64,000 nt of DNA, from the sequence record MG383452. One strand, 5' to 3'. The DNA comes from Escherichia phage FEC14. The notes under the pieces are model-generated. The model was not told the origin of the DNA and did not search any database. It worked only from the letters and a program-made list of their open reading frames with translations. Every line of letters starts with the position of its first letter. The stretch's first letter is position 1. Below are positions 7,270 through 33,673 of the stretch, in pieces. A program made the translations under genes and the position numbers.

Positions 7270-8037
7270 ATGTCAGAACGCGCATATCGTTTCAGTCTGA
7301 CCGCCCCAGAAATTGAGCGTTTGCTCTTGTCTATAAATGATTCCATACAAAAGCTGGACATCATTTATGACTACACGGCGGGTGGGACTGAAGGTCAAGT
7401 CGCAGCTGCGTCAGCTGTCAAAAACATGTGGCTAAAACTTAATGAGATGGTCACAGGTGAAGGTCTTAAAGACGCAATCAATGCAGCTAACGACAGCAAC
7501 GTATTCACCGATTATTATAAGTCTATTTTAGATCGCGAAACTTGGAAATTTATTGGTTCTCCGGCAGATTTATTAGCAAGGGACGATATAGACACTTCCA
7601 ATTTTGAAGGCGGTGAAGTAATCCTCCTACAAAAGAACGCTTCGGGCAACCCAGAATTCCAATACTGGAAAAGAACTCCTGTGGCAGGAGGTGATCCAAT
7701 ATTTGGTTGGGAATCTGTTTATGAAGGAAACTCCAACGACTCTTCTATTGATATTCCGGTTGTTGGGACCAGCATACTGAAGACAATCCCAAAAGCATTG
7801 TTTCATATGGTCGAATTCAGAGTACACGCTCGAGAGTCTACCCTCGGTCATTGGCAGGACACTGATGGCAAAATCGGTTATCGTGGTGAAGATCTGATTT
7901 ATAGCCTGTATAATCATGTTCAAACCAAACCGATCGCAAATATATCTTTCAGCCAAGATGTGGACAATATGATTATCACGATAACGACACTTGAACCAAA
8001 TATCAAGTGCCATTTATCGTTTATTGCGGGTTATTAA
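7270..8037 (+). CDS. hypothetical protein (255 aa), one of the few plus-strand genes
   Basis: Long plus-strand ORF in the gap between two minus-strand genes, GAGGAA RBS before ATG; stop overlaps the DinG stop convergently. Confidence 0.5.
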   Translation: MSERAYRFSLTAPEIERLLLSINDSIQKLDIIYDYTAGGTEGQVAAASAVKNMWLKLNEMVTGEGLKDAINAANDSNVFTDYYKSILDRETWKFIGSPADLLARDDIDTSNFEGGEVILLQKNASGNPEFQYWKRTPVAGGDPIFGWESVYEGNSNDSSIDIPVVGTSILKTIPKALFHMVEFRVHARESTLGHWQDTDGKIGYRGEDLIYSLYNHVQTKPIANISFSQDVDNMIITITTLEPNIKCHLSFIAGY

Positions 8038-9755
8038 ACCTCAAACACTGCATCGGTGAACCAGGTTGGGAAGAATTCTGGGTTGCGCATCATAAGAGAT
8101 TCAAAGGATGAATCAATGATGTATGTCGCAGCCCAGTCATCAACACCCCTGACCGAACGCCCACACATTTGAACAATGCGCAGTACTGCATTGCGGAAAT
8201 ATGCCGACGGATCCACTGAATTGATATGTGCTATCAGTGGATCGCCCAGATAATCATAAGGGACTTTGATCAGTATTTGGAAACGGCTGTAATCCCCTTT
8301 GAAATCATAACCTTCTTCCATAGCCGGACTGGCAATGACGCATGGGGACTTTGTTCTAAAAGCATTTTCCATAATATCCATCAACGCCTTTCGGGTGCGC
8401 GGAACATGGATAAAATTCTGATATTTACTGAATTTTTGTATTGCCAAGGCGCGATCATAACTCACTGTATGGATAATGCCGGACTGACCTGGGTGGAACG
8501 CGATTATTTCATCAATATATTCCGTCAACCTTTTCATTTCATAGTCGCCCATATTGTTAGTCATCTTCACTATGGGCATATAGTTGACTTTTCTGTTTTC
8601 AATTGGGATAGGGTTGCCGATCTGAATGGAATGATAATCCCCCTGTCGAATACCCAATGAACGAGCATAAGAATCTATGCCGCAGATCGTTGCTGACATA
8701 TGAACGTGATAATCGGCTTTTCGGAATAACCCGAATTCGCTTACATCAGAAGGCATAACAGGTTTAAACCGGATAAAATCTTCCCCCTTTTCTTGCACAA
8801 TAAATGTACTTGCTTGGGTTTGTGACATAATACCGCAATAATCACTCAAGTTATGCAAGACATCTATAATGTCTGCGAGTTTCATCACTTGGCTTTCACT
8901 CAAGCGATCATCTTCGACCAATTCTTCAAGAACTTCCAACAAATTTTCTACTTTGAGATGGAGGTCTTCAAACATTGAATGTAGTTCACCAGACAAAGAA
9001 TATAACTTGCCCAGGACATAGTCCTTGGTGCGTTCTACGATATCACCAATGGTAGAGACGATCTCCTTGCCCTCAGGGATAGAACGCAGCCCCTCCACGG
9101 CCTTTGTATTGTATTCCATGATCGTGTGCTCTAGGAGCGTAGAGGGCATTTTATGGCACTCGTCAAGGATCAGCATATCGGAACGGTTTTCGGGCTTCAT
9201 GCAGATGGTTGTACACATTTCGATCATCATGGCAGCATTAGTACAACGCAATGATGAAATATCCGTCCACAAATTACGCGCCTGTACATAAGGACAGCGG
9301 CGTTTGCTACAATGCCCGTCACGGCATGCTATACGGCATTGGACAGCATTGTAATACACATCTGGATGTACGTGGCAACGATAGTTCTTCTTGCCTTTTA
9401 GGATGTCTATCGCCACCGCCTTTTCAGCAGCATACTGATCTTGCAGACCTTTGGTCGGGGTGCTGATAGAAGTGCGAAATTGCCCATAAGGATCAGCCTG
9501 TAAAACTAGATGGCGAATCACTTTATGAATGGTAGTGCCAATCAAAGATTTACCGACACCTGTCGGAGCTTCAATGATGACATGTTTAACCTTTTTGTTG
9601 ATAAGCGCATCTATGGCTTCGACGATGCATTCCATCTGGCCTGGGTTCGCTTTGTCATATGGGAATTCATCTTTGGTAAGGCGTTGTATTTCTTCCACAG
9701 GAACCTTACGGCCTATGGCGTCAATCGCCTTTCGGTGTTGATTAAATGCTGTCAC
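8034..9755 (-). CDS. DinG/XPD-family (Rad3-like) DNA helicase with Fe-S cluster cysteines
   Basis: Walker A APTGVGKS, DEAH box LILDECH, four-Cys cluster (CHVH...CRIACRDGHCSKRRCPY) typical of Fe-S helicases; AGGAGGAA RBS. Confidence 0.8.
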   Translation of the reverse strand: MTAFNQHRKAIDAIGRKVPVEEIQRLTKDEFPYDKANPGQMECIVEAIDALINKKVKHVIIEAPTGVGKSLIGTTIHKVIRHLVLQADPYGQFRTSISTPTKGLQDQYAAEKAVAIDILKGKKNYRCHVHPDVYYNAVQCRIACRDGHCSKRRCPYVQARNLWTDISSLRCTNAAMMIEMCTTICMKPENRSDMLILDECHKMPSTLLEHTIMEYNTKAVEGLRSIPEGKEIVSTIGDIVERTKDYVLGKLYSLSGELHSMFEDLHLKVENLLEVLEELVEDDRLSESQVMKLADIIDVLHNLSDYCGIMSQTQASTFIVQEKGEDFIRFKPVMPSDVSEFGLFRKADYHVHMSATICGIDSYARSLGIRQGDYHSIQIGNPIPIENRKVNYMPIVKMTNNMGDYEMKRLTEYIDEIIAFHPGQSGIIHTVSYDRALAIQKFSKYQNFIHVPRTRKALMDIMENAFRTKSPCVIASPAMEEGYDFKGDYSRFQILIKVPYDYLGDPLIAHINSVDPSAYFRNAVLRIVQMCGRSVRGVDDWAATYIIDSSFESLMMRNPEFFPTWFTDAVFEV

Positions 9756-9890
9756 GTTGTTCCTCCTTTGGATTCTGTTATAGTTTACCCGAATCCCAAC
9801 AACGAAAAAGCCGAGGCATTAACCTCGGCTTCTCCTTTTAGCCTTGCGCCGCTGCACTGCAGACATGCGCTGGGCCGACGCCTGGTGTGA

Positions 9891-10169
9891 TTACTGGCCG
9901 TTGGCAGCAGCTTTCAGACCTTCACCGACTTTGAATTTAACTACATTTTTCGCTTCGATCTGGATCTGTTGTCCGTTCAGCGGGTTGCGGCCAGTGCGCG
10001 CTTCCTGATGTTTAACTTCGAACGCGCCGAAGCCTACGAATTGGACAGATTGGCCAGCCGCGACTGCAGTTTTCACGCCATTGATAAAAGATGCAACGAT
10101 TTTCTCAGCTTCGCCTTTGGTCATACCCTGGGTTTGAGCGATGTGAGCGATAAAATCAGTACGGTTCAT
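9891..10169 (-). CDS. HU/IHF-family DNA-binding protein
   Basis: From internal Met (MNRTDFIAHIAQ...) aligns end to end with E. coli HU incl. FVGFGAFEV and RTGRNPLNG arm motif; track ORF has a 12-aa N-terminal extension judged spurious. Confidence 0.8.
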   Translation of the reverse strand: MNRTDFIAHIAQTQGMTKGEAEKIVASFINGVKTAVAAGQSVQFVGFGAFEVKHQEARTGRNPLNGQQIQIEAKNVVKFKVGEGLKAAANGQ

Positions 10170-10252
10170 TCGGATTACTCCAGTTAGTTGTTTACGATGT
10201 TTCACTACAAGAGGACTACAGCTTACCTAACAAATACTATTGAATAAAGCGT

Positions 10253-11047
10253 TTATTTGCCGACGTTTAGCATTTTACTTGAGCCTGAACCATCAACAAT
10301 CAGAGTACATTTCCCGCTGTTGGCGCAAGATTGCAACACCATGTTATATTCGTGTTGTAAATATTCAGGTGTCAGAGATGTCGTCAGTTTCTGATTCGCC
10401 CTGGCTTCTTGGTCTCGAATTTCAACGTTCTTTCTTGCTGTATCCAAACGTTTGTCGGCCATGACATTATCACGGATAGATTGCTCAATCGAAGGATCTG
10501 TCAGCGCCTTTTTGACCAACACGCGTGTGATTGTGAACATGCCAGGTGCAGCTGTTTCTAATTGCTGCTGGGTGCGTTCCTTGATCATCTTTTCTAACTC
10601 AGCCCGTTGGGTGTGAATTGTCATAGAATCCAAAGAGGAAACGGCGTCCATCGTTGAGGATGCTGCGGCGGTTTTAACCAGGTTGAATCCCACCGCTATC
10701 GTGCCGTCACCGAGTTCAGCGCTCTGACCTGCAAATTTGGTATGGAACCAAGGAACCTTCGCGACGTTCGGTGTGTAATAAACGTCCACATCCAGATCTT
10801 CCAAGGTCAGGTTGTCTTTGGCCTTTGGCGTCATTTTCGTCAGACTCACAACGGCTTCTTTGGTCGTGTAAACATCCACGCTTGAAACAAAGCTGGTGTA
10901 GATCCCCGCTGTTACAGGGTTCATGTCTACTTCACCCCATTGGGTGCGAACGCCGACATTACCTTCATCGATAACGCCACCACAACCAGAAAGTAGACTT
11001 GCAGCCAGAACCATAATTGCACCAAACACCAATTTCTTGAACATCAA
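10253..11047 (-). CDS. lipoprotein (264 aa), possible SPFH/band-7-like
   Basis: Signal peptide with lipobox LLSGC read in translation; downstream fold assignment is a guess. Confidence 0.55.
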   Translation of the reverse strand: MMFKKLVFGAIMVLAASLLSGCGGVIDEGNVGVRTQWGEVDMNPVTAGIYTSFVSSVDVYTTKEAVVSLTKMTPKAKDNLTLEDLDVDVYYTPNVAKVPWFHTKFAGQSAELGDGTIAVGFNLVKTAAASSTMDAVSSLDSMTIHTQRAELEKMIKERTQQQLETAAPGMFTITRVLVKKALTDPSIEQSIRDNVMADKRLDTARKNVEIRDQEARANQKLTTSLTPEYLQHEYNMVLQSCANSGKCTLIVDGSGSSKMLNVGK

Positions 11048-11262
11048 TGTACCCCTTCAAAAATGTAGATATATGCACCCAATGTGAGTGCAGTTATTGT
11101 AACCGAAGAAATCAGCAGTAGGAAAGTTACTCTCACCCGTTTGCGCCAACGTTTACTTCGGTAGATTTTAGTCTCTTTCAAGTATTTGAAAAAGAAAAAT
11201 AAAATGAATGTTGAAATTACGAATATGAACAGATAACGGATTAACCCGATCATATTTCCCAC
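11044..11262 (-). CDS. small membrane protein (72 aa, two predicted TM segments)
   Basis: Two hydrophobic stretches separated by a basic loop (KRWRKRVR); overlaps lipoprotein start. Confidence 0.4.
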   Translation of the reverse strand: MGNMIGLIRYLFIFVISTFILFFFFKYLKETKIYRSKRWRKRVRVTFLLLISSVTITALTLGAYIYIFEGVH

Positions 11263-11570
11263 CCTGTGCTACGCAGATGATCAAAATAATCGTTGAGTTC
11301 GTCAATATCTTCGATATCAACCCAACGATCATCCAGACCCATATCATTTAGATCTTCTTCAGTCAGATCATGTTGGTATATTTGAACGCCGGAAGCATTA
11401 CAATAATCCGGCTTGATGTTATTGTTATACTGAAACAGGTCGTAATCAGCCAGAGTATTCTTCAGGCGCTGCGCTTCTTCAAATGTTGGAACCTCAACAT
11501 GAAAAGCGATCCCAGGAACCTGGGGAATATGCCAAACGCGAAATTTAAGTTCAAACGGTTTATTCGACAT
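11250..11570 (-). CDS. hypothetical acidic protein (106 aa)
   Basis: Minus-strand ORF in co-oriented array. Confidence 0.4.
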   Translation of the reverse strand: MSNKPFELKFRVWHIPQVPGIAFHVEVPTFEEAQRLKNTLADYDLFQYNNNIKPDYCNASGVQIYQHDLTEEDLNDMGLDDRWVDIEDIDELNDYFDHLRSTGWEI

Positions 11571-16270: not shown

Positions 16271-16603
16271 TTACTTGCGCAGGGCAACCACGTATTCGGC
16301 AAGTTCACCCATGGTCGGGTCGTCGCCTTTACCGCCCAGCCAGCCATCAGAGATCTCGACATTGAACTCTTCTTCTAGTTCCATGACGATTTCGATGGCA
16401 TCAAGATCGTCGCCGCCGAGGTCTTTCTTGGTGCGGAGGCCAGCCAGTTTATCCAGGGCGTCATTCATAATCACTTCCGCGTCGACGATGCCTTTGATGC
16501 TGCTCTTGTCTTCGTCACTGACTTCCAGGTTCAGATTGTCAGTGGCGTACTGAGCCAGGTGACGCATTACTTCAACATAAGTTGGTTTGTTTGACATAAG
16601 CAT
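16271..16603 (-). CDS. acyl-carrier-protein-like protein with Asp in place of the phosphopantetheine-attachment Ser
   Basis: DLGGDDLDAIEIVMELEEEFNVEISD aligns with E. coli ACP [26 protein letters not shown]; the conserved Ser is Asp here. Confidence 0.6.
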   Translation of the reverse strand: MLMSNKPTYVEVMRHLAQYATDNLNLEVSDEDKSSIKGIVDAEVIMNDALDKLAGLRTKKDLGGDDLDAIEIVMELEEEFNVEISDGWLGGKGDDPTMGELAEYVVALRK

Positions 16604-16640: not shown

Positions 16641-18893
16641 TTAGATTTTGACTTCTTTTTCAGCCAGTTCGGCAGTGACAGTGTATTTCACCCCATCAAC
16701 TTCCACATCCATAGTGGATTCTTCCAAATCCAGGTCGGTAAACCAACCATGGCCTGCAACAATCCCATAAACTACCTTGGACAGCGTTTTGTTCAGAGAT
16801 CGAACTTCGTTGATAGCTGCTTTTGCTGCATCACCAATCCAACTTTCGATCAGCTTTTTCTGAGTCTCTTCCGGTACGCTGGTGATCATCGGCGATTTAA
16901 CAAACGCATTGTATTCGGCCAGGGCATTAGCGATCAGCTGATCAGCGACATTCAGTTTTTTACCGTCCGTCTGTTTTTTGATAACAGACGCGATGCTCGG
17001 CAGTGAAGATGCGCCTTTGATTTTCACATTCAATTCACGACTCATATAGACATCGGTTGATTCTACAGAAGAAGTCTTCGGTGAAAATCCATAGTCGCGA
17101 ATGCCGTTTGCTGACAGGAAATCAGCCGCTTCTTTGCCATATTTTGAAGCCAGACCAGTAGCGTTGCCTTTGCCAACCAGTTCATCACGGTAGAATTTCA
17201 GAACTTTTTGCTTTGCCTTCAATGCTTCACGGCGCACATTGTCTGCAAAGAATTCAGCAGCACTGATATTCTTTGTCATGGCGCGGTTAACCATTGGGAC
17301 ACTTTCCAGATTTACAATGAAGACTTCCGGCCCACCAAACACATGAACACCCATGGCAGTCAAATCCTGTGCCACCTTAGCCCGAATAATCGGAGAATCT
17401 GCAGTGATAGGCATTGTTTTCAGGTTGATGATACCATCCTTGACAATGGTGTAATTGCGATAACGCCAGGTTCCCAGCTCTTCAGGAAGTTCATATTTCT
17501 TCTGTACAAACTCAGGCACAACAACCGTTCCGTGTTGAACTGTCTGCACACTGATGTTAGGACGTTCTGAATTGTAGACCAAATTGCTGATCGGGACAAT
17601 CCCTTTATCATCTGCTGGATTGAATTCGGGGGTCCAATCTTCGTGCTCGGCCAGTTTGAGCGCCAGGGCTTTACGCTCTTCTTTAGAAGTCGCATTCGCA
17701 ATCTCTTCGGCCAACTTGTCTTCGGTGTCATCAACTTTCTGTACAGTACCGCGCCCAATGCTCTTGTAAGAGAATAGCGGATGCTTAGTGACAATAGAGA
17801 CATCTGCTTCAGCCAGATACGTCAGAACATCAACAATGGTGGTGGCGTCTTCAGCCGGAACCATATTATAATCGATGCCATCAACTCCTCGCAGAGATTC
17901 GTCTACGATAGCCTGGGTCAGATCGACTTTGATGTTGGAATAGTCCTGCTTGGTGAAACAGTTGCTGTATTGTTTGATGAAGCGGACGTCACCCGTTTTC
18001 TTCAGCGCAGCCCAAACCAAATCTGCGTCCATGGTATACACGCCGTAAAATGCCAGCACGTATGCCGCTTGGATGTCTGCCAGATTATCCAGCTGGTCGA
18101 TCATGTTGGGGTTTACAACCCACAGCTGAGAAACGCTTTCAGGGATGCTGACGTGGCCAATAGGGTGCTCTTCATCAGGATGCACAGCTAAAACAGTCGC
18201 CACGCCATTTTCAACATAAATGGCATGGGTGTAAACCAGGGGAACATCGACCACCACTTTCGGTGAAGAAGTTTTTAGCACGTTTTCCAATTCGGTCTGA
18301 TATTCATTCTGGCCTTCGGCGAATACGTGGGTCGCACCAGAACGTTCTGCCATTAGCGCCAGCAGTTCGCGATTACAATACCAACCGTATTCGATGAAGG
18401 TAATGTTATCAAACGCTTTGGGCAGTACTTCAGCGGCATCCAGGATTTCATTAGAACGCCAGCAGTTGTCATATCCGTCAGTCATGAATGCCAGGTTATT
18501 AACATAACCAGGTTTATTCAGGCTAATGGCAGTTTCCGCAGCCAATTTCAGCGGCTCAACAAAACCAGTACAACCAGAAGGCTTCAGGAAACGGTCAATT
18601 AGATTATTGATCTCAGTGAGATCAGTTGCACTGTTAATCTGACGTCCGGCAAATACCGTTCCGAAATCACCGCGAGATGAAAAGTAAAGGATGCTCACAG
18701 TATCTTCCGGTTTCACCAGGGAAGGCAGGTTCTCCTTCAGATGCTTACGGACTTCTGGAAGTGAACGATACATGGAACCGGAGATATCCACAACGATTAC
18801 ATGGTTAGACGGCGCGACGGTCGCAACCGCATTCTTAAATGTTAATGATTCAATCATCGTTATTACCTTCTTTAGTGGTATGGACGGCTTCAC
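16641..18893 (-). CDS. von Willebrand factor A (vWA) domain protein (about 740 aa)
   Basis: N-terminal MIDAS-type motif VIVVDISGSM plus downstream Thr/Asp positions typical of vWA; likely true start at MIESL (about 18857), coupled to an upstream small ORF. Confidence 0.65.
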   Translation of the reverse strand: MKPSIPLKKVITMIESLTFKNAVATVAPSNHVIVVDISGSMYRSLPEVRKHLKENLPSLVKPEDTVSILYFSSRGDFGTVFAGRQINSATDLTEINNLIDRFLKPSGCTGFVEPLKLAAETAISLNKPGYVNNLAFMTDGYDNCWRSNEILDAAEVLPKAFDNITFIEYGWYCNRELLALMAERSGATHVFAEGQNEYQTELENVLKTSSPKVVVDVPLVYTHAIYVENGVATVLAVHPDEEHPIGHVSIPESVSQLWVVNPNMIDQLDNLADIQAAYVLAFYGVYTMDADLVWAALKKTGDVRFIKQYSNCFTKQDYSNIKVDLTQAIVDESLRGVDGIDYNMVPAEDATTIVDVLTYLAEADVSIVTKHPLFSYKSIGRGTVQKVDDTEDKLAEEIANATSKEERKALALKLAEHEDWTPEFNPADDKGIVPISNLVYNSERPNISVQTVQHGTVVVPEFVQKKYELPEELGTWRYRNYTIVKDGIINLKTMPITADSPIIRAKVAQDLTAMGVHVFGGPEVFIVNLESVPMVNRAMTKNISAAEFFADNVRREALKAKQKVLKFYRDELVGKGNATGLASKYGKEAADFLSANGIRDYGFSPKTSSVESTDVYMSRELNVKIKGASSLPSIASVIKKQTDGKKLNVADQLIANALAEYNAFVKSPMITSVPEETQKKLIESWIGDAAKAAINEVRSLNKTLSKVVYGIVAGHGWFTDLDLEESTMDVEVDGVKYTVTAELAEKEVKI

Positions 18894-21301: not shown

Positions 21302-23320
21302 TTAGAAGATGACTTTTACAGTACGGTTAAACGCGCCGGACACTTTGACGAACACGTGGTTGCGTTGCGTCGTTGAGAATCCCAGACCGGACAGTTGGTT
21401 TTCATTCGGCTGGACTTTCATTTTACTACCCAACATTTCAAAAACCTTACGATGTTTATCCAGTTCCGGCTTCAGATATTCGTTGTAGAAACCACGAGTA
21501 CCTTCAGGATTAGCACAGCCTTCAAGAATGAAGAACACATGCTTGTTACCAGTTTGCTCCCCATCCCAATGGTTTGGTGAATTCAGAACCAGCTGTACTT
21601 TCTGGAAGGTCGCAGTCTTGATACCCCAAACTTCTTTAGACTTATCAACATTAGCCAGTTCGGACTTAATGCTAACGACTTGTTTGTCTTTAACAGTCAG
21701 GATGACTGCAGTGATACGCCCCTGATCTTTCAGGCCAGGATGGCTGAAACGATGCGTTGCGCCTTTGTATTCTACTTCGACTTCAAACCCTTCGTCGATC
21801 TTTTCACGTTGATTGTAGTTGTGGATTTCGAAACGGTATTCACCATCGCGCAGCTTGCTTTCATCTGTAAAGATGATATTTTCCACCGGAGCGCGGTTTG
21901 GATCAATACCATCCATACCGTTCATATCGATATCCAGATGGGCACCTGTCATAGAGCGACGATCACGGAAGTACACGTGCTCCATATTGTTAAAGAACAT
22001 ATGAAGATCGAGGTCGTCGTTATTGTGCCACGCCAAGGAAACGCGCAGATACCCGTCAACTTTACCACCAGCAGCCTTTACACGTTCTTTAATGGAATCG
22101 GTCACTTCACCGTTGTAAGACCAGGAGAACCCGTTGTTCCACTTGAACAGGTTAGGCGCATCTGGGTTCGCCGGAGCAACCAGGGACATCAGGTTGCTAG
22201 TATGAGAATTCTCTACAAGCACTTCCATTGAATGCGCTTTTGGCAGAACATTGCTCAGGAAATCATCAACGCTGATCTCTTCAACTTTTTCCAGGGACTT
22301 GGTCGGAGTTTTCACTTCGGCGGCCAGCTGTGCAAACGGATCCATCGCTTTCTGAGCAGCCAGATCTGCGAACAGAACGTTGTTGATTGTCAGATCATCG
22401 TAAACCGCATAACGACGCGCCAGTGAGTCTTCCAAACCCAGAGCAATAACTTCTTTCTGAGCGTTTTCGATCATGGATTTTGAAACCAGCGCTGTCGGAC
22501 GTTTGTAGTTCGCCGGAGCAACTTTGGATTCAAACGATTTAACAGCCTTTTCCAGTTCCACGCCTTCGCTGATATCTGTCAGCAGAGTGCCGATAACTGT
22601 GTTACGGATGCCGTGTGGAACATGATTGTTTGAACGGTATCCAGTATGCCATGCCCACAGAGAACGGGCTGATTCGGGGATTTGTTCATACGCTTTTTTG
22701 GTTTCAACAAATCCCTTCACTGCTGCTTTGTGTTCTGCGCCGCGATACAGAGAATTCTGGTCAATCAGTTCCAGAACGATTTCAGCTGATTCCAGAGTAA
22801 TTTCACGCAGACCGCGTTCAAACAATTCAATAGCCTGGCGGATTTCACCTTTTTTCGAAGCGATTGCGTCCGGACGCAGAACATAGCTACCCAGCAGGTC
22901 GGTGTGGAAGTGGTTGTAGGTGCGGACATTGCCGTCTTTCATTTCGTGATTCGACTCAACACCGACTTTCTTGGTATCGTTGAAGTACACGTCGACGATT
23001 ACGTGTTGCTTGACATACGCAGACAGCGCCGCAGCCACCACGTCATATTCATTACCCAGATCAATGTTGTCCCAGATAGAAATTACGTTCAGGTCGGAGT
23101 CGATGGTGATCACACCGCCGATGTTACGGATGAATTGTTTACAGCAGGTGCAGTCGTGCTCAGTACGCTCACGGTAGAGCGGGTTGGTACCAGCAGGGAA
23201 AGATGCCAGATACAGATCCCAAAGAGCATCTTTATCGATATTGGTCATGAACAGACCAGTTGCGGACATCGCCAGCACGTTGTTATTAACTGCCGTTGCG
23301 AAGGGTTTGAATTCTGCCAT
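21302..23320 (-). CDS. large uncharacterised protein (672 aa)
   Basis: Long uninterrupted minus-strand ORF; no family recognised by eye (no polymerase B, ligase or Walker motifs). Confidence 0.6.
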   Translation of the reverse strand: MAEFKPFATAVNNNVLAMSATGLFMTNIDKDALWDLYLASFPAGTNPLYRERTEHDCTCCKQFIRNIGGVITIDSDLNVISIWDNIDLGNEYDVVAAALSAYVKQHVIVDVYFNDTKKVGVESNHEMKDGNVRTYNHFHTDLLGSYVLRPDAIASKKGEIRQAIELFERGLREITLESAEIVLELIDQNSLYRGAEHKAAVKGFVETKKAYEQIPESARSLWAWHTGYRSNNHVPHGIRNTVIGTLLTDISEGVELEKAVKSFESKVAPANYKRPTALVSKSMIENAQKEVIALGLEDSLARRYAVYDDLTINNVLFADLAAQKAMDPFAQLAAEVKTPTKSLEKVEEISVDDFLSNVLPKAHSMEVLVENSHTSNLMSLVAPANPDAPNLFKWNNGFSWSYNGEVTDSIKERVKAAGGKVDGYLRVSLAWHNNDDLDLHMFFNNMEHVYFRDRRSMTGAHLDIDMNGMDGIDPNRAPVENIIFTDESKLRDGEYRFEIHNYNQREKIDEGFEVEVEYKGATHRFSHPGLKDQGRITAVILTVKDKQVVSIKSELANVDKSKEVWGIKTATFQKVQLVLNSPNHWDGEQTGNKHVFFILEGCANPEGTRGFYNEYLKPELDKHRKVFEMLGSKMKVQPNENQLSGLGFSTTQRNHVFVKVSGAFNRTVKVIF

Positions 23321-23433: not shown

Positions 23434-24690
23434 TTATTCAGGTTTCTTCAAACGATCTAATAAATTGACCGATCCGCGATTGAGGACAATTTCATCGCAT
23501 CGATTTTTGTATCTCCCGCCTCCATCATAACCGACCTTGCCGCGTGGCTTTTCCCCTCTCTCGATAGCCTCAACACAGCGGGTGTACTTGCTCAATTCAC
23601 AGAACATGTTCTCCAGCTGCATGACGTTCATGCACTGATCTTCCGGCGCTTCGGCTGACCAGAACTGCTCTTGGACATAACCATACTGAGCAAACAATTG
23701 ATACTGATGATCACGAACCCAGAATATGCATTCTTCATGAGTCATGCCGTCCTTATCCAGGAACATCAGGTCAATACCCGCACGGCAACCTGGACCAGCA
23801 ATAGTGAAATGATTCTCACTGAATGGATATTCATCGATGTATGTAAAATCAACCCAAATCTGGTATGCCAAGAATGGTCCAAGCCCCTCAATGTCGTCAT
23901 ACATCGCCTGGTAAACAGAGTCGGGACGGCTAAATTCCCTGAGGCGATCAAAGTAATGAGGGTGTTTGTTGACGAATGCCTTCAAAGAGCGAATGACTCG
24001 CATCGGCATGTATGGTTCCCAGCCTTCTATTTTGTATTCACCAGGATTATCTTCGGCCAGCTTCTTGGCAACCTTGTAATCCATTTCATCTATAACACCA
24101 CCCACCCGATGGACTTTTACCTTCATGCCGCCAAAGCGTTGCTCCTTATGGTTGACAACCAGTTCAGGGAAAGCTAGGCATTGTTTCAGACCGCCTGTAT
24201 TAAACGCATTGGTGAAAACTTTGCCACCTTTAGATTCGAATTCCTGAAGAACATCTCGACACCATTCAAGATTTATGTTTCCGAATTCTTCGATCGTCCA
24301 TGGACCACCCAAAGCCTGTATAGGTTCCCACATGTTGTACATGCGGAACAATACACAGTTAAACATTTTGTCAGATAGCGTGAGATCCTGATCGAGGATG
24401 ATATTATTGATCAAATTTCGAGACTGCCTATCGTGCTCTCTCCGGACGTTACAGAACTTGACCTGCCGTAGTATGGGATTATCCGTCCAAGGAGCAGGAA
24501 GACGCTGGACGTCCTTTCTCACGTGGATCTTATAACGCTCGCTCATCCATTCGTATGCGAGTTGTTTATGGAATGGGCTTAACATGGGATGTGCAGATTT
24601 AATTTTAACTTCCCGAACACCGCAATAAGGAATGTCACACGGTTTATCTTTCATGGTATCCTCTCTAGAATACAAAAAAACAGAGGCCAT
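23434..24690 (-). CDS. uncharacterised protein (418 aa)
   Basis: Long minus-strand ORF; no family recognised. Confidence 0.6.
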   Translation of the reverse strand: MASVFLYSREDTMKDKPCDIPYCGVREVKIKSAHPMLSPFHKQLAYEWMSERYKIHVRKDVQRLPAPWTDNPILRQVKFCNVRREHDRQSRNLINNIILDQDLTLSDKMFNCVLFRMYNMWEPIQALGGPWTIEEFGNINLEWCRDVLQEFESKGGKVFTNAFNTGGLKQCLAFPELVVNHKEQRFGGMKVKVHRVGGVIDEMDYKVAKKLAEDNPGEYKIEGWEPYMPMRVIRSLKAFVNKHPHYFDRLREFSRPDSVYQAMYDDIEGLGPFLAYQIWVDFTYIDEYPFSENHFTIAGPGCRAGIDLMFLDKDGMTHEECIFWVRDHQYQLFAQYGYVQEQFWSAEAPEDQCMNVMQLENMFCELSKYTRCVEAIERGEKPRGKVGYDGGGRYKNRCDEIVLNRGSVNLLDRLKKPE

Positions 24691-24725: not shown

Positions 24726-25682
24726 TTAATCGAAGCGAGAGAGGTGTGTCACAGTGTTTTGAACAGGTGCGCACGCGTATACACGAACATTAGCACCCCA
24801 CACCCCACACAGCTTAGGCATATTGGTATCGTTAATGATATACGCTGGCACATAACTTTCAATTTGGCCGTTAACATCTACGGGTCGAGAAGATTTTTCA
24901 ACTGCCATAGAAAGAATTATTTCCAACGTTTTTGGAGATACCAACGCCACGCCGTTCAAATCATCAACAAATACCTGACCTTCTTCAATTGCCATGCTGG
25001 CAACGATGTCATTGATCTGACGGGAAGGGGTATTCGTCAGCATATCAGAGAAATCAGGCTCTTTGAACACAGCCATGTTTTTCAGGAATTTTCCTTTCGG
25101 ATATTCTTTGCCATTCCACATCACAGTCTCATTCACTTTGATGCATGCCTGAGGGAATTCACCTTCAACACGTAACTGGCCATCTGGGAAACCGCGTGAA
25201 TAATAATATTCCAGTGCCGGACCGACTTCATCTTCTGAGCGAATAAATTTGCTCATGTTGGAGGCATAAACACGCTGCAAGCACTCATCGCCGTTGAAAC
25301 CAGCAATGTGTGCCACGCCGTCATTGACTGTTGTGATGTCGCCCTGAGCGTCCAAAATCTGGCGCATAATGTCTTTGATGTCGACAACAGCAGGTTCTTT
25401 CAGGACTCGCGGAGATGCAGTGAACTCAATTTTCACCTCGTGGTCGAAATAAGCCGCTTCCAGTAATTCGCGGGTCTCTTCCAGAACCAGTTTGGCCTGA
25501 TTGCGAATTTTACCGAAGTCAGGGGCTGTAATATCTCCAGCCGCATTACCAAAAGCCAAATTCAATCTCACGTTTTTATTAAATGTAGTTGTCATAATAT
25601 AGCGACTCCAGTTATTCGCTTTTTGCCCGACTTGGGCGAATAGTGTATTTTGGAACCAATTTCCACTCAGAAACTTGGTCAT
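24726..25682 (-). CDS. uncharacterised protein (318 aa), N-terminal region weakly resembling all-alpha NTP pyrophosphohydrolases (MazG/dCTPase-like)
   Basis: KLVLEETRELLEAAYF segment resembles the E-x-x-E-L-L-E helix of MazG-like enzymes; weak. Confidence 0.5.
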   Translation of the reverse strand: MTKFLSGNWFQNTLFAQVGQKANNWSRYIMTTTFNKNVRLNLAFGNAAGDITAPDFGKIRNQAKLVLEETRELLEAAYFDHEVKIEFTASPRVLKEPAVVDIKDIMRQILDAQGDITTVNDGVAHIAGFNGDECLQRVYASNMSKFIRSEDEVGPALEYYYSRGFPDGQLRVEGEFPQACIKVNETVMWNGKEYPKGKFLKNMAVFKEPDFSDMLTNTPSRQINDIVASMAIEEGQVFVDDLNGVALVSPKTLEIILSMAVEKSSRPVDVNGQIESYVPAYIINDTNMPKLCGVWGANVRVYACAPVQNTVTHLSRFD

Positions 25683-26076
25683 GTTTTACAACTTTGATCC
25701 GAGACATGTCAGCCACTTCGGTTATTTGTTCCGGATGCAAGATCTTAACCATATTCCATTGCTCCAGAAGCCGTATAATCCGATTCATACGCAGGACATC
25801 TTCACGCGTAAAGCCGTTGTAGTGCCCATCTAGCATGAACAAATGCTTGAAATGCACGATGTGATATCTGCCAAATTTATGCAGGATATGGCACGTTTGA
25901 TACAAGGTGTTAGGCTCTTGACGAGTGTTAACCCCTATCCGACTCAGCGTTTCCTTGATACCCAGGAAAATCCCTGGTTTGTCTTGGTTCAATTGAACTT
26001 CAACCATACAGTCAACAATGCTGGCCTCATCGTTGACAGCTGAAAGTTTTAAGATGTCCAGCGTATTACGCGCCAT
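25612..26076 (-). CDS. regA: translational repressor RegA
   Basis: IKETLSRIG...LYQTCHILHKFGRYHIVHFKHLFMLDG...SEWKLVPKYTI aligns with T4 RegA (VKETLTRMG...LYQSCHILQKKGLYYIVHFKEMLRMDG...HEWKLVPKYTI); true start may be the internal Met at about 26007. Confidence 0.75.
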   Translation of the reverse strand: MARNTLDILKLSAVNDEASIVDCMVEVQLNQDKPGIFLGIKETLSRIGVNTRQEPNTLYQTCHILHKFGRYHIVHFKHLFMLDGHYNGFTREDVLRMNRIIRLLEQWNMVKILHPEQITEVADMSRIKVVKHDQVSEWKLVPKYTIRPSRAKSE

Positions 26077-32290: not shown

Positions 32291-32944
32291 GTGTTCCTGA
32301 CACGCGGATTCAGAAAATGGATCATGACGATGATAATGGTGCTTGCACTCACAAGTTGCCGTATCTTTGTCACGTCCGTCATTTCTGTAACCGACCTCTG
32401 GGATCCTGAAATCAGAACCATACCTGTTAACATCTCAGCCGACATTGATAAATGCAATAAAAATATTCTGAATCAAGTAGTATCTGATTTTCAGAACTTT
32501 CAGACTCTTCAAGCTGTTGGTTGTTTTGATGATAACAACCAGTCACTGAGACCATACTGGAAAACCACGATTCCCCTATTGAGGAAAGGTGACGAAGGAA
32601 AGATCCCATATCTATCCGCAAGTATTTATTACTCTCAGAATAATAGCATCATAGCGACTTTCAACCCTTCTTTCTTTGACAAACTCAGAAGGAATACTCA
32701 AGCAAGGGACGTAGAAATCACCAGAGACGTTGCAATATCATTTCAGATAGTTAATAACACCAAATCTCCGATCCGAATTGCCACTCAGGGTGTTTTCGTT
32801 AATGGATCTGCTGTAGGTAATGAAATGAACATCTATGAAATAAGACCAGGCGGTAAAGTATGGATTCGAATGAGTGATGTTGGGGTGAACTCCCTGGTGA
32901 TGGAAGGTATCGAACCAGTGGGAGTTCTCCCCGCTAGACATTGA
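32291..32944 (+). CDS. plus-strand lipoprotein (start likely GTG giving MFLTRGFRKWIMTMIMVLALTSC signal with lipobox)
   Basis: Lipobox LTSC after a hydrophobic segment; GGAGA RBS before an in-frame GTG; track ORF 32246..32944. Confidence 0.45.
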   Translation: MFLTRGFRKWIMTMIMVLALTSCRIFVTSVISVTDLWDPEIRTIPVNISADIDKCNKNILNQVVSDFQNFQTLQAVGCFDDNNQSLRPYWKTTIPLLRKGDEGKIPYLSASIYYSQNNSIIATFNPSFFDKLRRNTQARDVEITRDVAISFQIVNNTKSPIRIATQGVFVNGSAVGNEMNIYEIRPGGKVWIRMSDVGVNSLVMEGIEPVGVLPARH

Positions 32945-33673
32945 TTATTTCAGGGACTCTTTTAATTCTGGAGTCCCTATTTTATCAATAACGCCTCCAG
33001 CACAGAGATCTTTGGCCCATTCTTCAAGAACATTCGCAAAAGAGAAGTTTAGACATTCTTTGATCATACTTTCAATATGAGCAAGTTCTGCAGCTATCCC
33101 ATCGGTGATATCGTTTATAACTCCATTGACGGCGGTTATTGCCTCATTGATATGTCCTGTTACTTCAGCAGCCAATTGCTGTAGTTTTGCCATCTCTTCT
33201 GAGGCACCTTCCATAATCATGTCATACAATTCCGATATCTTGTTTGTTACGGTCTGTAGAGCACCTTCCATAGCATTCAGCCATTGGCGTCCTAAATCCT
33301 GAACAACACCAAAAGCCTTGTTGATCAAATCACAATTGTTTGGCTCTCGTGATATACCCTTCAGACCTGATTTGTATGACACGGAAGTACCGATGCGAGA
33401 ATACGCGTCATTGATACTTTGGTCGCCATATGTGTTCAGTGTCGTTATCCCCGTGTTGGCGGTGCTATACATGGTGGTGGCTGCTGTGAGTTTTTCTGGT
33501 GTTAGTCCACCAGCCGCCATAGCCGCCTGCATCTCCGGAGTCGCGTTGGCAGTTATCAATGGTATATTGGTACTACCACTGGTGATTAAATCCTGTGAGG
33601 GTCCGGAGAGGGACGGAAGCGGGTTGCTAAATGCATTACCAGAGGAAAGGACATCGTAGATTTGTGCGTTCAT
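32945..33673 (-). CDS. hypothetical protein (242 aa), Gly/Ser/Thr-rich N-terminus and helical C-terminus
   Basis: Minus-strand ORF. Confidence 0.5.
   Translation of the reverse strand: MNAQIYDVLSSGNAFSNPLPSLSGPSQDLITSGSTNIPLITANATPEMQAAMAAGGLTPEKLTAATTMYSTANTGITTLNTYGDQSINDAYSRIGTSVSYKSGLKGISREPNNCDLINKAFGVVQDLGRQWLNAMEGALQTVTNKISELYDMIMEGASEEMAKLQQLAAEVTGHINEAITAVNGVINDITDGIAAELAHIESMIKECLNFSFANVLEEWAKDLCAGGVIDKIGTPELKESLK

Follow-up and report, generated by a model that had tools for sequence, protein, structure and literature searches.

The window, that is, the whole 64-kb stretch of phage DNA that was analyzed, carries on its minus strand an open reading frame that begins with an ATG at position 10169 and ends with a TAA stop at 9891–9893. 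It lies between genes for a DinG/Rad3-type helicase and an SPFH/Band 7 lipoprotein (Table 1). The earlier note on this DNA had placed an HU/IHF-family gene at the same coordinates, between a DinG helicase and a lipoprotein gene, and the profile matches, the solved chains, the predicted fold, and the neighboring genes all agree with that assignment. A longer, GTG-initiated version of 104 aa was set aside, because its counterpart starting at the ATG has the N terminus MNRTDF, which matches the MNKTQL of bacterial HU, and because the ATG is the start in all public annotations. The Shine-Dalgarno sequence in front of this ATG is kept in four of the five aligned genera.

Table 1. Features of the HU locus, and the DNA modification gene of the same window
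Feature	Position	Strand	Description and basis
DinG/Rad3-type helicase	8034–9755	minus	3' neighbor of the HU gene; Helicase_C_2, ResIII, and DEAD matches
GGTAAACTATA, second GGTAARCTRTA copy	9779–9789	minus	Between the terminator and the helicase start
Intrinsic terminator	9800–9836	minus	Stem GCCGAGG/CCTCGGC, then UUUUU; between the HU and helicase genes
HU-type DNA-binding protein (CDS)	9891–10169	minus	92 aa plus stop; open reading frame and translation, PF00216, PHROG 379
Shine-Dalgarno sequence GGAG	10178–10181	minus	8 nt 5' of the ATG; read from the sequence
Conserved noncoding element TTTATTCAATAGTATTTGTTAGGTAAGCTGTAGTCCTCTTGTAGTG	10203–10248	minus	5' of the HU gene; probable promoter/operator
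SPFH/Band 7 lipoprotein	10253–11047	minus	5' neighbor of the HU gene; lipobox LLSGC
5-hmdU DNA kinase	23437–24690	minus	PF18723, E=2.7e-84; two genes 3' of regA (25615–26076)

Residues 1–90 of the predicted protein aligned with the entire Pfam profile PF00216 (Bac_DNA_binding, positions 1–90 of 90) with an E value of 7.7e-30 and a score of 103.4 bits, against a curated cut-off of 22.4, which places the protein in the HU/IHF superfamily. It also matched the family PHROG 379, annotated as "DNA binding protein" (E=3.9e-37), and 35 distinct solved HU/IHF chains. An AlphaFold model, for which the input alignment consisted of 28 homologs, had a mean pLDDT of 95.1 and showed the helix-helix-sheet-arm-helix topology of the HU fold, with helices at residues 3–14, 18–37, and 83–89 and strands within residues 42–81. 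[quoted passage not shown]

The conserved core and arm residues of the family (GFG, F47, F50, R58, G60, R61, N62, P63, and F79) are all present in the window protein, and G46, F47, G48, F50, R58, G60, N62, P63, F79, and K80 are invariant across the 28-sequence alignment. The protein has thereby retained both the residues that make up the dimer core in solved HU/IHF-DNA complexes (GFG, F47, F50, and F79) and the residues of the beta-arm that embrace the DNA (R58, R61, N62, and the intercalating P63). Its net charge of +4 and its pI of about 9.7–9.8 are equal to those of ordinary HU, so that the idea of a protein made less basic to suit cationic DNA was rejected. All of these matches are far beyond chance, and the open reading frame is a real, full-length gene of the HU/IHF family.

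Upstream of the gene lies a noncoding element of approximately 45 bp, which holds a TTCAATA motif, a –10-like hexamer TAAGCT (TAnnnT), and the direct repeat TGTAG-N6-TGTAG, spaced by 11 bp. The element is nearly invariant in Kuttervirus, Limestonevirus, Aglimvirinae, and Taipeivirus and largely kept in Nezavisimistyvirus, despite the near saturation of synonymous sites in the HU gene itself (dS 0.7–1.3). Three explanations for it were tried and rejected. It is not a repeated phage promoter, as it occurs once in the window and is unique across all the loci fetched; a promoter scan found no consensus sigma-70 promoter in it; and as a structured RNA it gave no significant Rfam match, an alifold energy of –0.96 kcal/mol, and a single-sequence z-score of +1.2. 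The element is probably a dedicated promoter or operator. In addition, AUUUGUUAGGUAA resembles the SELEX consensus of T4 RegA, but the further copies of this RegA-operator-like sequence are at chance level (three, against 2.0 expected), and it was kept as a lead only.

Downstream of the gene, the hairpin of the intrinsic terminator folds at –26.2 kcal/mol (z=–4.3), with none of 200 shuffled sequences being as stable, and the same hairpin was picked up by a pattern scan. Its stem shows compensatory changes between genera, being GCCGAGG/CCTCGGC, GCCGGAG/CTCCGGC, or GCCGGGG/CCCCGGC. The motif GGTAARCTRTA has only two exact matches in the window, one at 10217–10227, 5' of the HU gene, and the other between the terminator and the helicase start. 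Four genera conserve the latter site, a candidate –10 region for the promoter of the helicase gene. Taken together, the upstream element, the good ribosome-binding site, and the strong terminator suggest a separately controlled, probably well-expressed, monocistronic HU unit.

Conservation and genome context

A 2.5-kb query around the HU gene matched 236 phage records, with identities of 99.6% to Salmonella phage SFP10 and 97.6% to Escherichia phage CBA120; the orthologs of the gene are SFP_0101 in the former and orf125/gp098 in the latter. The window phage is a Kuttervirus of the family Ackermannviridae (ViI-like), and the T4 frame of reference adopted in the earlier note has to be replaced, as, strictly speaking, the phage is no relative of T4. 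That frame can be traced to the T4-type replication and late-transcription genes common to the ViI-like phages, which have regA, gp44/62/45, gp55, and gp46/47 of this type.

The HU gene is already known. Public records annotate it for more than 200 genomes of Ackermannviridae, with labels that include "DNA binding protein," "histone-like DNA binding protein," "HU-beta," and even "TF1," and it has been published as a core gene: in a CoreGenes analysis (PMC10892097, Table 5), a "putative DNA binding protein" located between the helicase and the spanin is among 114 Vi01-like core genes. Literature searches for functional, transcriptomic, or structural work on the window protein found nothing relevant, and a 2024 review of the Ackermannviridae makes no mention of a DNA-binding or histone-like protein.

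Most Kuttervirus records encode a protein with 100% or 98.9% identity to that of the window. Identity decreases to 85% in an Aglimvirinae phage, 82% in Limestonevirus, 78% in Taipeivirus, and 72% in phage CRW-SP2, so that the gene is found at 72%–100% identity in five genera; a further copy, 58% identical, is on a metagenomic contig whose genes follow the same order, and the protein of Erwinia phage phiEa2809 is 47%–48% identical. Between the window and CBA120, the gene differs by four synonymous and no nonsynonymous changes, with 100% amino acid identity. Between genera, dN/dS is 0.08–0.25 with dS of 0.7–1.3 or more, synonymous sites being near saturation. The gene is under purifying selection. 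Its GC content (49.5%) is slightly higher than the window mean (44.3%).

The surroundings of the gene are conserved on one side. The HU gene is followed by a spacer of 125–135 nt, the DinG-like helicase gene, a gene of 255 aa on the opposite strand, RNase H, and the late sigma factor gp55. This order was kept at every locus examined, in Kuttervirus, Limestonevirus, Aglimvirinae, Taipeivirus, Nezavisimistyvirus, and the metagenomic contig. The HU gene heads a conserved block made up of the DinG-like helicase, RNase H, gp55, and gp47/gp46. The genes on its 5' side (for the SPFH lipoprotein and for superinfection exclusion of the gp17 type) differ between genera.

Relation to bacterial HU, IHF, and TF1

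Identity figures were taken from MAFFT alignments, the final one containing 30 sequences. Of the E. coli proteins, HupA (HU-alpha) and HupB (HU-beta) share 40% and 39% identity, respectively, with the window protein, compared with 29% for IhfA and 29%–31%, depending on the alignment, for IhfB. With the bacterial HU proteins (E. coli HupA and HupB, the Bacillus HBsu-type 3RHI and 1HUU, and Anabaena 1P51/1P71), it has in common the fold (TM 0.8–0.9), the length (92 vs. 90 aa), the signature GFGxF...RxGRNPxxG...FKxG, P63, and the charge of +4. It differs from them in being phage-encoded, in its identity of only 39%–44%, in forming a clade of its own, and in scoring below the cut-offs of the NCBIfam models for HU-alpha (NF008023, 67.2 bits vs. 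a cut-off of 162) and HU-beta (NF007945, 67.0 vs. 157). Further differences from E. coli HU are the replacement of R55 by Q and of K83 by E, and a leucine (L64) after the intercalating proline. The first two changes mean that the affinity for DNA could differ from that of host HU.

In a neighbor-joining tree (200–300 bootstraps), the HU proteins of the enteric Ackermannviridae formed a clade with 84%–85% support, apart from HupA and HupB, which grouped together at 78%. Deeper nodes had bootstrap values of 35% or less, and the grouping of all Ackermannviridae HU proteins, a clade of nine members, had about 12%. The tree supports only the shallow enteric clade, and the attempt to read the origin of the gene from it was abandoned. 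The best database matches outside the Ackermannviridae had only 44%–48% identity, and among 62 database matches there was no bacterial relative above about 48%. Recent capture of a host hupA or hupB gene was ruled out by the identity of 39%–40%, the separate clade, the scores below the cut-offs, and the core status and purifying selection of the gene.

We favor, with moderate confidence, the reading that the product is a nucleoid-associated protein of the canonical HU type and that its gene is a vertically inherited core gene of the enterobacterial Ackermannviridae.

The earlier note had compared the gene with that for TF1, the HU homolog of Bacillus phage SPO1, and this likeness did not hold at the level of sequence. 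The window protein is 37% identical to TF1, against 40% for HU-alpha. At position 61 of the arm, it has an arginine (RTGRNPLNG), where TF1 has a phenylalanine (KGFNP) and where an aromatic residue is also found in gp190 of phage SP10 (RKGYNPL) and in the metagenomic P0017 (RQGFNPL). Its core motif is GFGAF instead of the GFL of TF1. TF1, with 99 aa, has a C-terminal tail of nine residues, and SP10 gp190 has 106 aa, whereas the window protein ends two residues past E. coli HU. The neighbor-joining tree placed the Ackermannviridae proteins beside TF1 and SP10 with a bootstrap of only about 11%. Of the phylogenetic comparison that had been proposed against host HU and TF1, one half is clear, as host HU and the window protein do not cluster; the other half gave no positive signal of kinship with TF1. 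Judged by its sequence, the window protein is neither host-derived nor TF1-type.

The likeness to TF1 lies instead in the context. Like TF1 (1WTU/1EXE) and SP10 gp190, the window protein is an HU protein encoded by a large virulent phage that builds its DNA by incorporation of hmdUTP, and its gene is a small separate unit within a replication gene cluster. In SPO1, tf1 has gene 30 on one side and the DNA polymerase gene on the other, and in SP10 the gene for gp190 is located between replication protein and DNA polymerase genes. Work by Geiduschek and Grove is said to have found that TF1 prefers hmU DNA. By analogy, the window protein is probably a functional counterpart of TF1 in position and role, and not a TF1-type protein in sequence.

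HU genes and DNA modification

That the phage DNA might be modified, as the earlier note had suspected, is correct and has already been published, in 2011 and 2018, for the ViI-like phages. In ViI, CBA120, and CBA6, 5-(2-aminoethoxy)methyl-dU (5-NeOmdU) replaces ~40% of T, and is made post-replicatively from 5-hmdU by 5-hmdU DNA kinases, a serine transferase of the aGPT-Pplase type, and a PLP decarboxylase (PMC5889632; PMC8989533). SFP10 has been placed in the ViI-like group (PMC5889632). Thymidine cannot be incorporated by CBA120, the "thymidylate synthase" of which clusters with dUMP hydroxymethylases (PMC3184105). The module downstream from regA that had been described as uncharacterized contains a 5-hmdU DNA kinase (Table 1).

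The principal alternative to a canonical HU protein is that of a TF1-like protein specialized for the hmU/5-NeOmdU DNA of the phage over the T-containing DNA of the host. Such a reader of modified DNA would mark phage DNA for replication or late transcription or, in the manner of TF1, shut off early genes. We consider it possible but doubtful. In its favor, besides the hmU-derived DNA of the genus and the kinase in the window, is the aromatic residue at position 61 in the relatives P0017 and SP10, as in TF1; against it are R61, the intact GFG, and the missing tail of the window protein itself, together with the identities and the weak TF1 grouping given above.

The distribution of HU genes bears on this alternative from both sides. 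The enteric Ackermannviridae all carry HU and the kinase, and the organism counts nearly coincide for searches with HU, kinase, and helicase. The kinase-bearing Vibrio Ackermannviridae-like phages have no HU gene at the helicase locus, and tblastn organism counts had suggested its absence from them; a whole-genome HMM scan overturned this, as phage D504 proved to have, close to its genes for a sigma factor and DNA polymerase, an HU-family gene of very divergent sequence (E=3.7e-12). This type of gene, the product of which in D504 is without the GFG and RNP motifs, is common to 67 Vibrio records. The Acinetobacter phage SH-Ab 15599, which is classified in the Ackermannviridae and has recently been shown to carry alpha-dapT (PMC13458397), also has an HU gene. 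The HU genes of the Vibrio (D504/1.244.A type) and Acinetobacter phages resemble that of the window in family, superfamily, thymidine-hypermodifying background, and nearness to replication genes, but they differ in identity (27%–38%) and locus, and they may not be orthologs of the enteric gene, the clade uniting all of them having a bootstrap of about 12%. An HU gene has thus been retained across the sampled Ackermannviridae despite changes in its sequence and position, and it has likewise been retained in the hmU Spounavirinae, represented by SPO1 with TF1 and SP10 with gp190. In SP10, the DNA of which contains alpha-glutamylthymine, gp190 adjoins a dUMP hydroxymethylase-like "thymidylate synthase" gene, and the 5-hmdU kinase gp186 lies 2.4 kb away. 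By organism counts, ~85% of the 399 kinase records fall in groups with an HU-family gene, compared with about 1% of all 50,697 records, this being a lower bound from three HU-family searches that matched 113–524 records each. Among the matches of the TF1 and HU searches, other well-sampled groups are missing, including T4-like coliphages and the Staphylococcus and Listeria Herelleviridae, which contain T.

On the other side, modified phages exist in which whole-genome HMM scans, the sole basis for these absences, found no HU gene. The Delftia phage PhiW-14, which contains alpha-putrescinylthymine, has no HU-family open reading frame in its 157 kb (best HMM E value of 0.45 with filters off), although it encodes a 5-hmdU kinase and replication proteins of the T4 type and keeps RNase H, gp55, gp47, and gp46 together in one block; the gene for its DinG/Rad3-type helicase, gp070, is found away from this block. 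In the Pseudomonas phage M6 (5-NedU), no HU was found either (best E value of 0.035). Conversely, HU genes are common in phages without known modification, of which there are hundreds, for example, Mu-like Burkholderia and Ralstonia phages, SPbeta-like phages, 0305phi8-36, and Clostridioides and Fusobacterium phages. The co-occurrence of HU and modification reduces to two independent clades, the Ackermannviridae and the Spounavirinae. Because HU is missing in PhiW-14 and M6 and common in phages without known modification, a link to modification is plausible but unproven, and an HU gene is a weak predictor of modified DNA.

The geometry of binding also argues against direct reading. Substituents at C5 occupy the major groove, while the arms of HU and IHF bind in the minor groove, as in the complexes 1IHF and 1P51. 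It follows that a protein of this type could prefer modified DNA only indirectly, through the flexibility or charge of the DNA, as is presumably also the case for TF1; the charge and pI of the window protein are those of ordinary HU.

A broader version of the modification link, which is speculative and in our view unlikely, is that HU proteins are a recurrent, partly convergent accessory of the hmdUTP phages in the Ackermannviridae and Spounavirinae. Its canonical sequence notwithstanding, the window protein would then sense the altered flexibility or charge of hmU/5-NeOmdU DNA and in this way separate phage from host DNA for replication or late transcription, with the 45-bp leader as a control site for autoregulation, for a RegA-type regulator, or for another phage regulator.

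Proposed role of the phage HU protein

An IHF-like, site-specific factor that would bend an origin, a packaging site, or a promoter, possibly acting on its own upstream element (autoregulation), is improbable. The protein does share the fold of IhfA and IhfB, and its best single NCBIfam score was with the IHF-alpha model (76.2 bits, vs. about 67 for HU-alpha and HU-beta), so that some sequence preference is possible. Its C-terminal half also contains VVKFKVG, close to the VVTFRPG of the corresponding strand in E. coli IhfA, and the upstream block with the TGTAG direct repeat is unique and conserved across genera. However, the scores with the IHF models NF001401, NF001222, TIGR00987, and TIGR00988 (58.6–76.2 bits) fall widely short of all the equivalog cut-offs (111–120), and the identity to the IHF subunits is lower than that to HU-alpha. 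Moreover, the window has one HU-family open reading frame, and an HU-family database search found 529 places in 524 records, approximately one in each; with a single gene, there is no alpha/beta heterodimer as in IHF.

It is very improbable that the protein is a host-takeover factor, which would form mixed dimers with HU-alpha or HU-beta or displace HU and so remodel or decondense the nucleoid of the host and redirect its transcription, instead of acting directly on phage DNA. Host HU has the same dimer-core residues GFG, F47, F50, and F79, the gene adjoins the "moron-like" genes for the SPFH lipoprotein and gp17-type superinfection exclusion, and there is a precedent in SPO1, where Gp46 inhibits HU (PMC8892312). 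What is conserved, nevertheless, is the linkage of the gene to the block for replication and late transcription; the accessory genes upstream vary between genera.

That the protein is packaged in the capsid to condense the genome, as HU-family proteins condense DNA and some large viruses, such as ASFV with pA104R, package them, has next to no probability, given that it was not detected by LC-MS/MS in CsCl-purified virions of phage Sajous1 (HU 98.9% identical), in which the minor contaminants SSB, ACP, and the neighboring SPFH lipoprotein were detected, although this negative is weak for a 10-kDa protein that gives few tryptic peptides. The result makes an intracellular role more likely than a packaged one.

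As a canonical HU protein, the product would form a homodimer, the arms of which would enter the minor groove and kink the DNA at P63. Phage DNA would be bent or compacted with little sequence specificity, and distorted intermediates would be preferred. Because the gene appears to form its own transcription unit, is linked to the replication and late-transcription block, and has a product that was not detected in virions, its most likely role would be that of an intracellular architectural cofactor in replication and recombination intermediates; a further role may be in gp55/gp45-coupled late transcription or in condensation before packaging. The substrate would be phage DNA that is first rich in hmU and later contains ~40% 5-NeOmdU, and the protein may supplement or replace host HU when this is limiting or ill-suited to phage DNA.

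As it stands, the finding matters little, as the gene is annotated, belongs to the core genes, and encodes a member of a very well-known protein family. The residual interest lies in the hypothesis of a TF1 analog and in the unusually conserved upstream element. Discrimination between modified and unmodified DNA is now directly testable, as the analysis names the protein and the modified substrates for it, PhiW-14 and M6 as natural negative controls without HU, and a conserved control element. If the protein does discriminate hmU/5-NeOmdU DNA, it could serve as a tool for handling hypermodified DNA, and it would be the second independent nucleoid protein, after TF1, to read the modification of a phage genome.

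Conserved block near the HU gene and motifs repeated in the window

Some 45 bp of non-coding sequence 5' of the HU gene form a block that varies less from one Ackermannviridae genus to another than do the synonymous sites of the gene itself, and that occurs as a single copy within the 64-kb window. A second version of the block's core GGTAAGCTGTA, reading GGTAAACTATA, precedes the helicase gene, and these two sites are the only exact matches to GGTAARCTRTA in the 64 kb. The block also contains TGTAG-N6-TGTAG. The sequence AUUUGUUAGGUAA resembles the T4 RegA SELEX consensus.

Two further sequences are over-represented in the window, namely TTCAATAA (15 observed vs. 4.65±1.87 expected) and TCAATAAC (13 observed vs. 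3.09±1.89 expected). Both lie mostly on the coding strand of intergenic gaps, directly 3' of stop codons, often with a GC-rich hairpin immediately after them, and are sometimes found within promoter arrangements resembling GTTTAC-N17-TATACT. They are candidates for either a phage-specific promoter motif or a terminator-associated motif. The leader of the HU gene contains TTCAATAG.

The accessory cluster directly upstream of the HU gene encodes a lipoprotein of the SPFH/Band-7 type with the lipobox LLSGC, a membrane-like ORF of 72 aa, and a gp17-type superinfection-exclusion protein (PF17420). At the same position in other genera, this cluster is present, rearranged or absent. The lipoprotein has been recorded in virion preparations of phage Sajous1, with three spectra.

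Coordinates of the features (window positions unless another record is named)
Feature	Position	Strand	Remark
Conserved HU upstream block	10203-10248	-	
Second copy of the core	9779-9789	-	
TCAATAA sites	12, 44, 12594, 16198, 19460, 23412, 27599, 35256, 35278, 36427, 36801	-	Each site is given by its first T as read on the minus strand, in + strand numbering (the upper end of the match)
Accessory cluster	10253-11570	-	
Acyl carrier protein	16274-16603	-	In the kinase neighbourhood
VWA-domain protein	16644-18893		In the kinase neighbourhood
672-aa protein	21305-23320		No Pfam match; neighbour of the kinase gene
5-hmdU DNA kinase	23437-24690	-	PF18723, E=2.7e-84
regA	25615-26076		
P0017	3870-4148 of metagenomic contig L016		
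SP10 gp190	10538-10858 of SP10 locus L024		
Highly divergent HU-family gene	132536-132808 of Vibrio phage D504 record (32837-33109 of locus L022)		

Relatives of the HU protein

The metagenomic protein P0017 is 58% identical to the window HU, has the same gene order and, like TF1, carries at arm position 61 the Phe that distinguishes TF1 (RQGFNPL). The TF1-like gp190 of SP10 has Tyr at this position (RKGYNPLN). The residues NPL after the arm Gly are common to the Kuttervirus, P0017 and SP10 proteins, whereas TF1 and bacterial HU lack them.

In the Vibrio Ackermannviridae-like phages, the HU gene is absent from the helicase locus. A highly divergent HU-family gene, undetected by tblastn with the Kuttervirus HU protein, adjoins a large sigma-factor gene, tRNA genes and a DNA polymerase gene, and its product differs in having neither GFG nor the RNP motif. 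Vi01-like phages have a second "putative histone like protein" in their core genome, Vi01 gene product 4, encoded near rIIA/rIIB and topoisomerase II (PMC10892097, Table 5), outside the window. By tblastn it is not an HU-family protein: the search yields roughly a single match to the family in each record (529 places in 524 records).

The Foldseek top match of the AlphaFold HU model (m3f94146b1bb8) is chain B of PDB 9A4H, entitled "integrative model of ACP-DBH1", a title that presumably denotes a complex between acyl carrier protein and HU. The phage's own acyl carrier protein gene lies about 6 kb from the HU gene, and its pairing with this structure match is probably a coincidence.

A hypermodification gene downstream of regA

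Two genes downstream of regA is a gene for a 5-hmdU DNA kinase, which is also adjoined by a MazG-like gene and the gene of a DUF3268 zinc-finger protein. The known thymidine-hypermodification machinery is thus partly encoded within the window.
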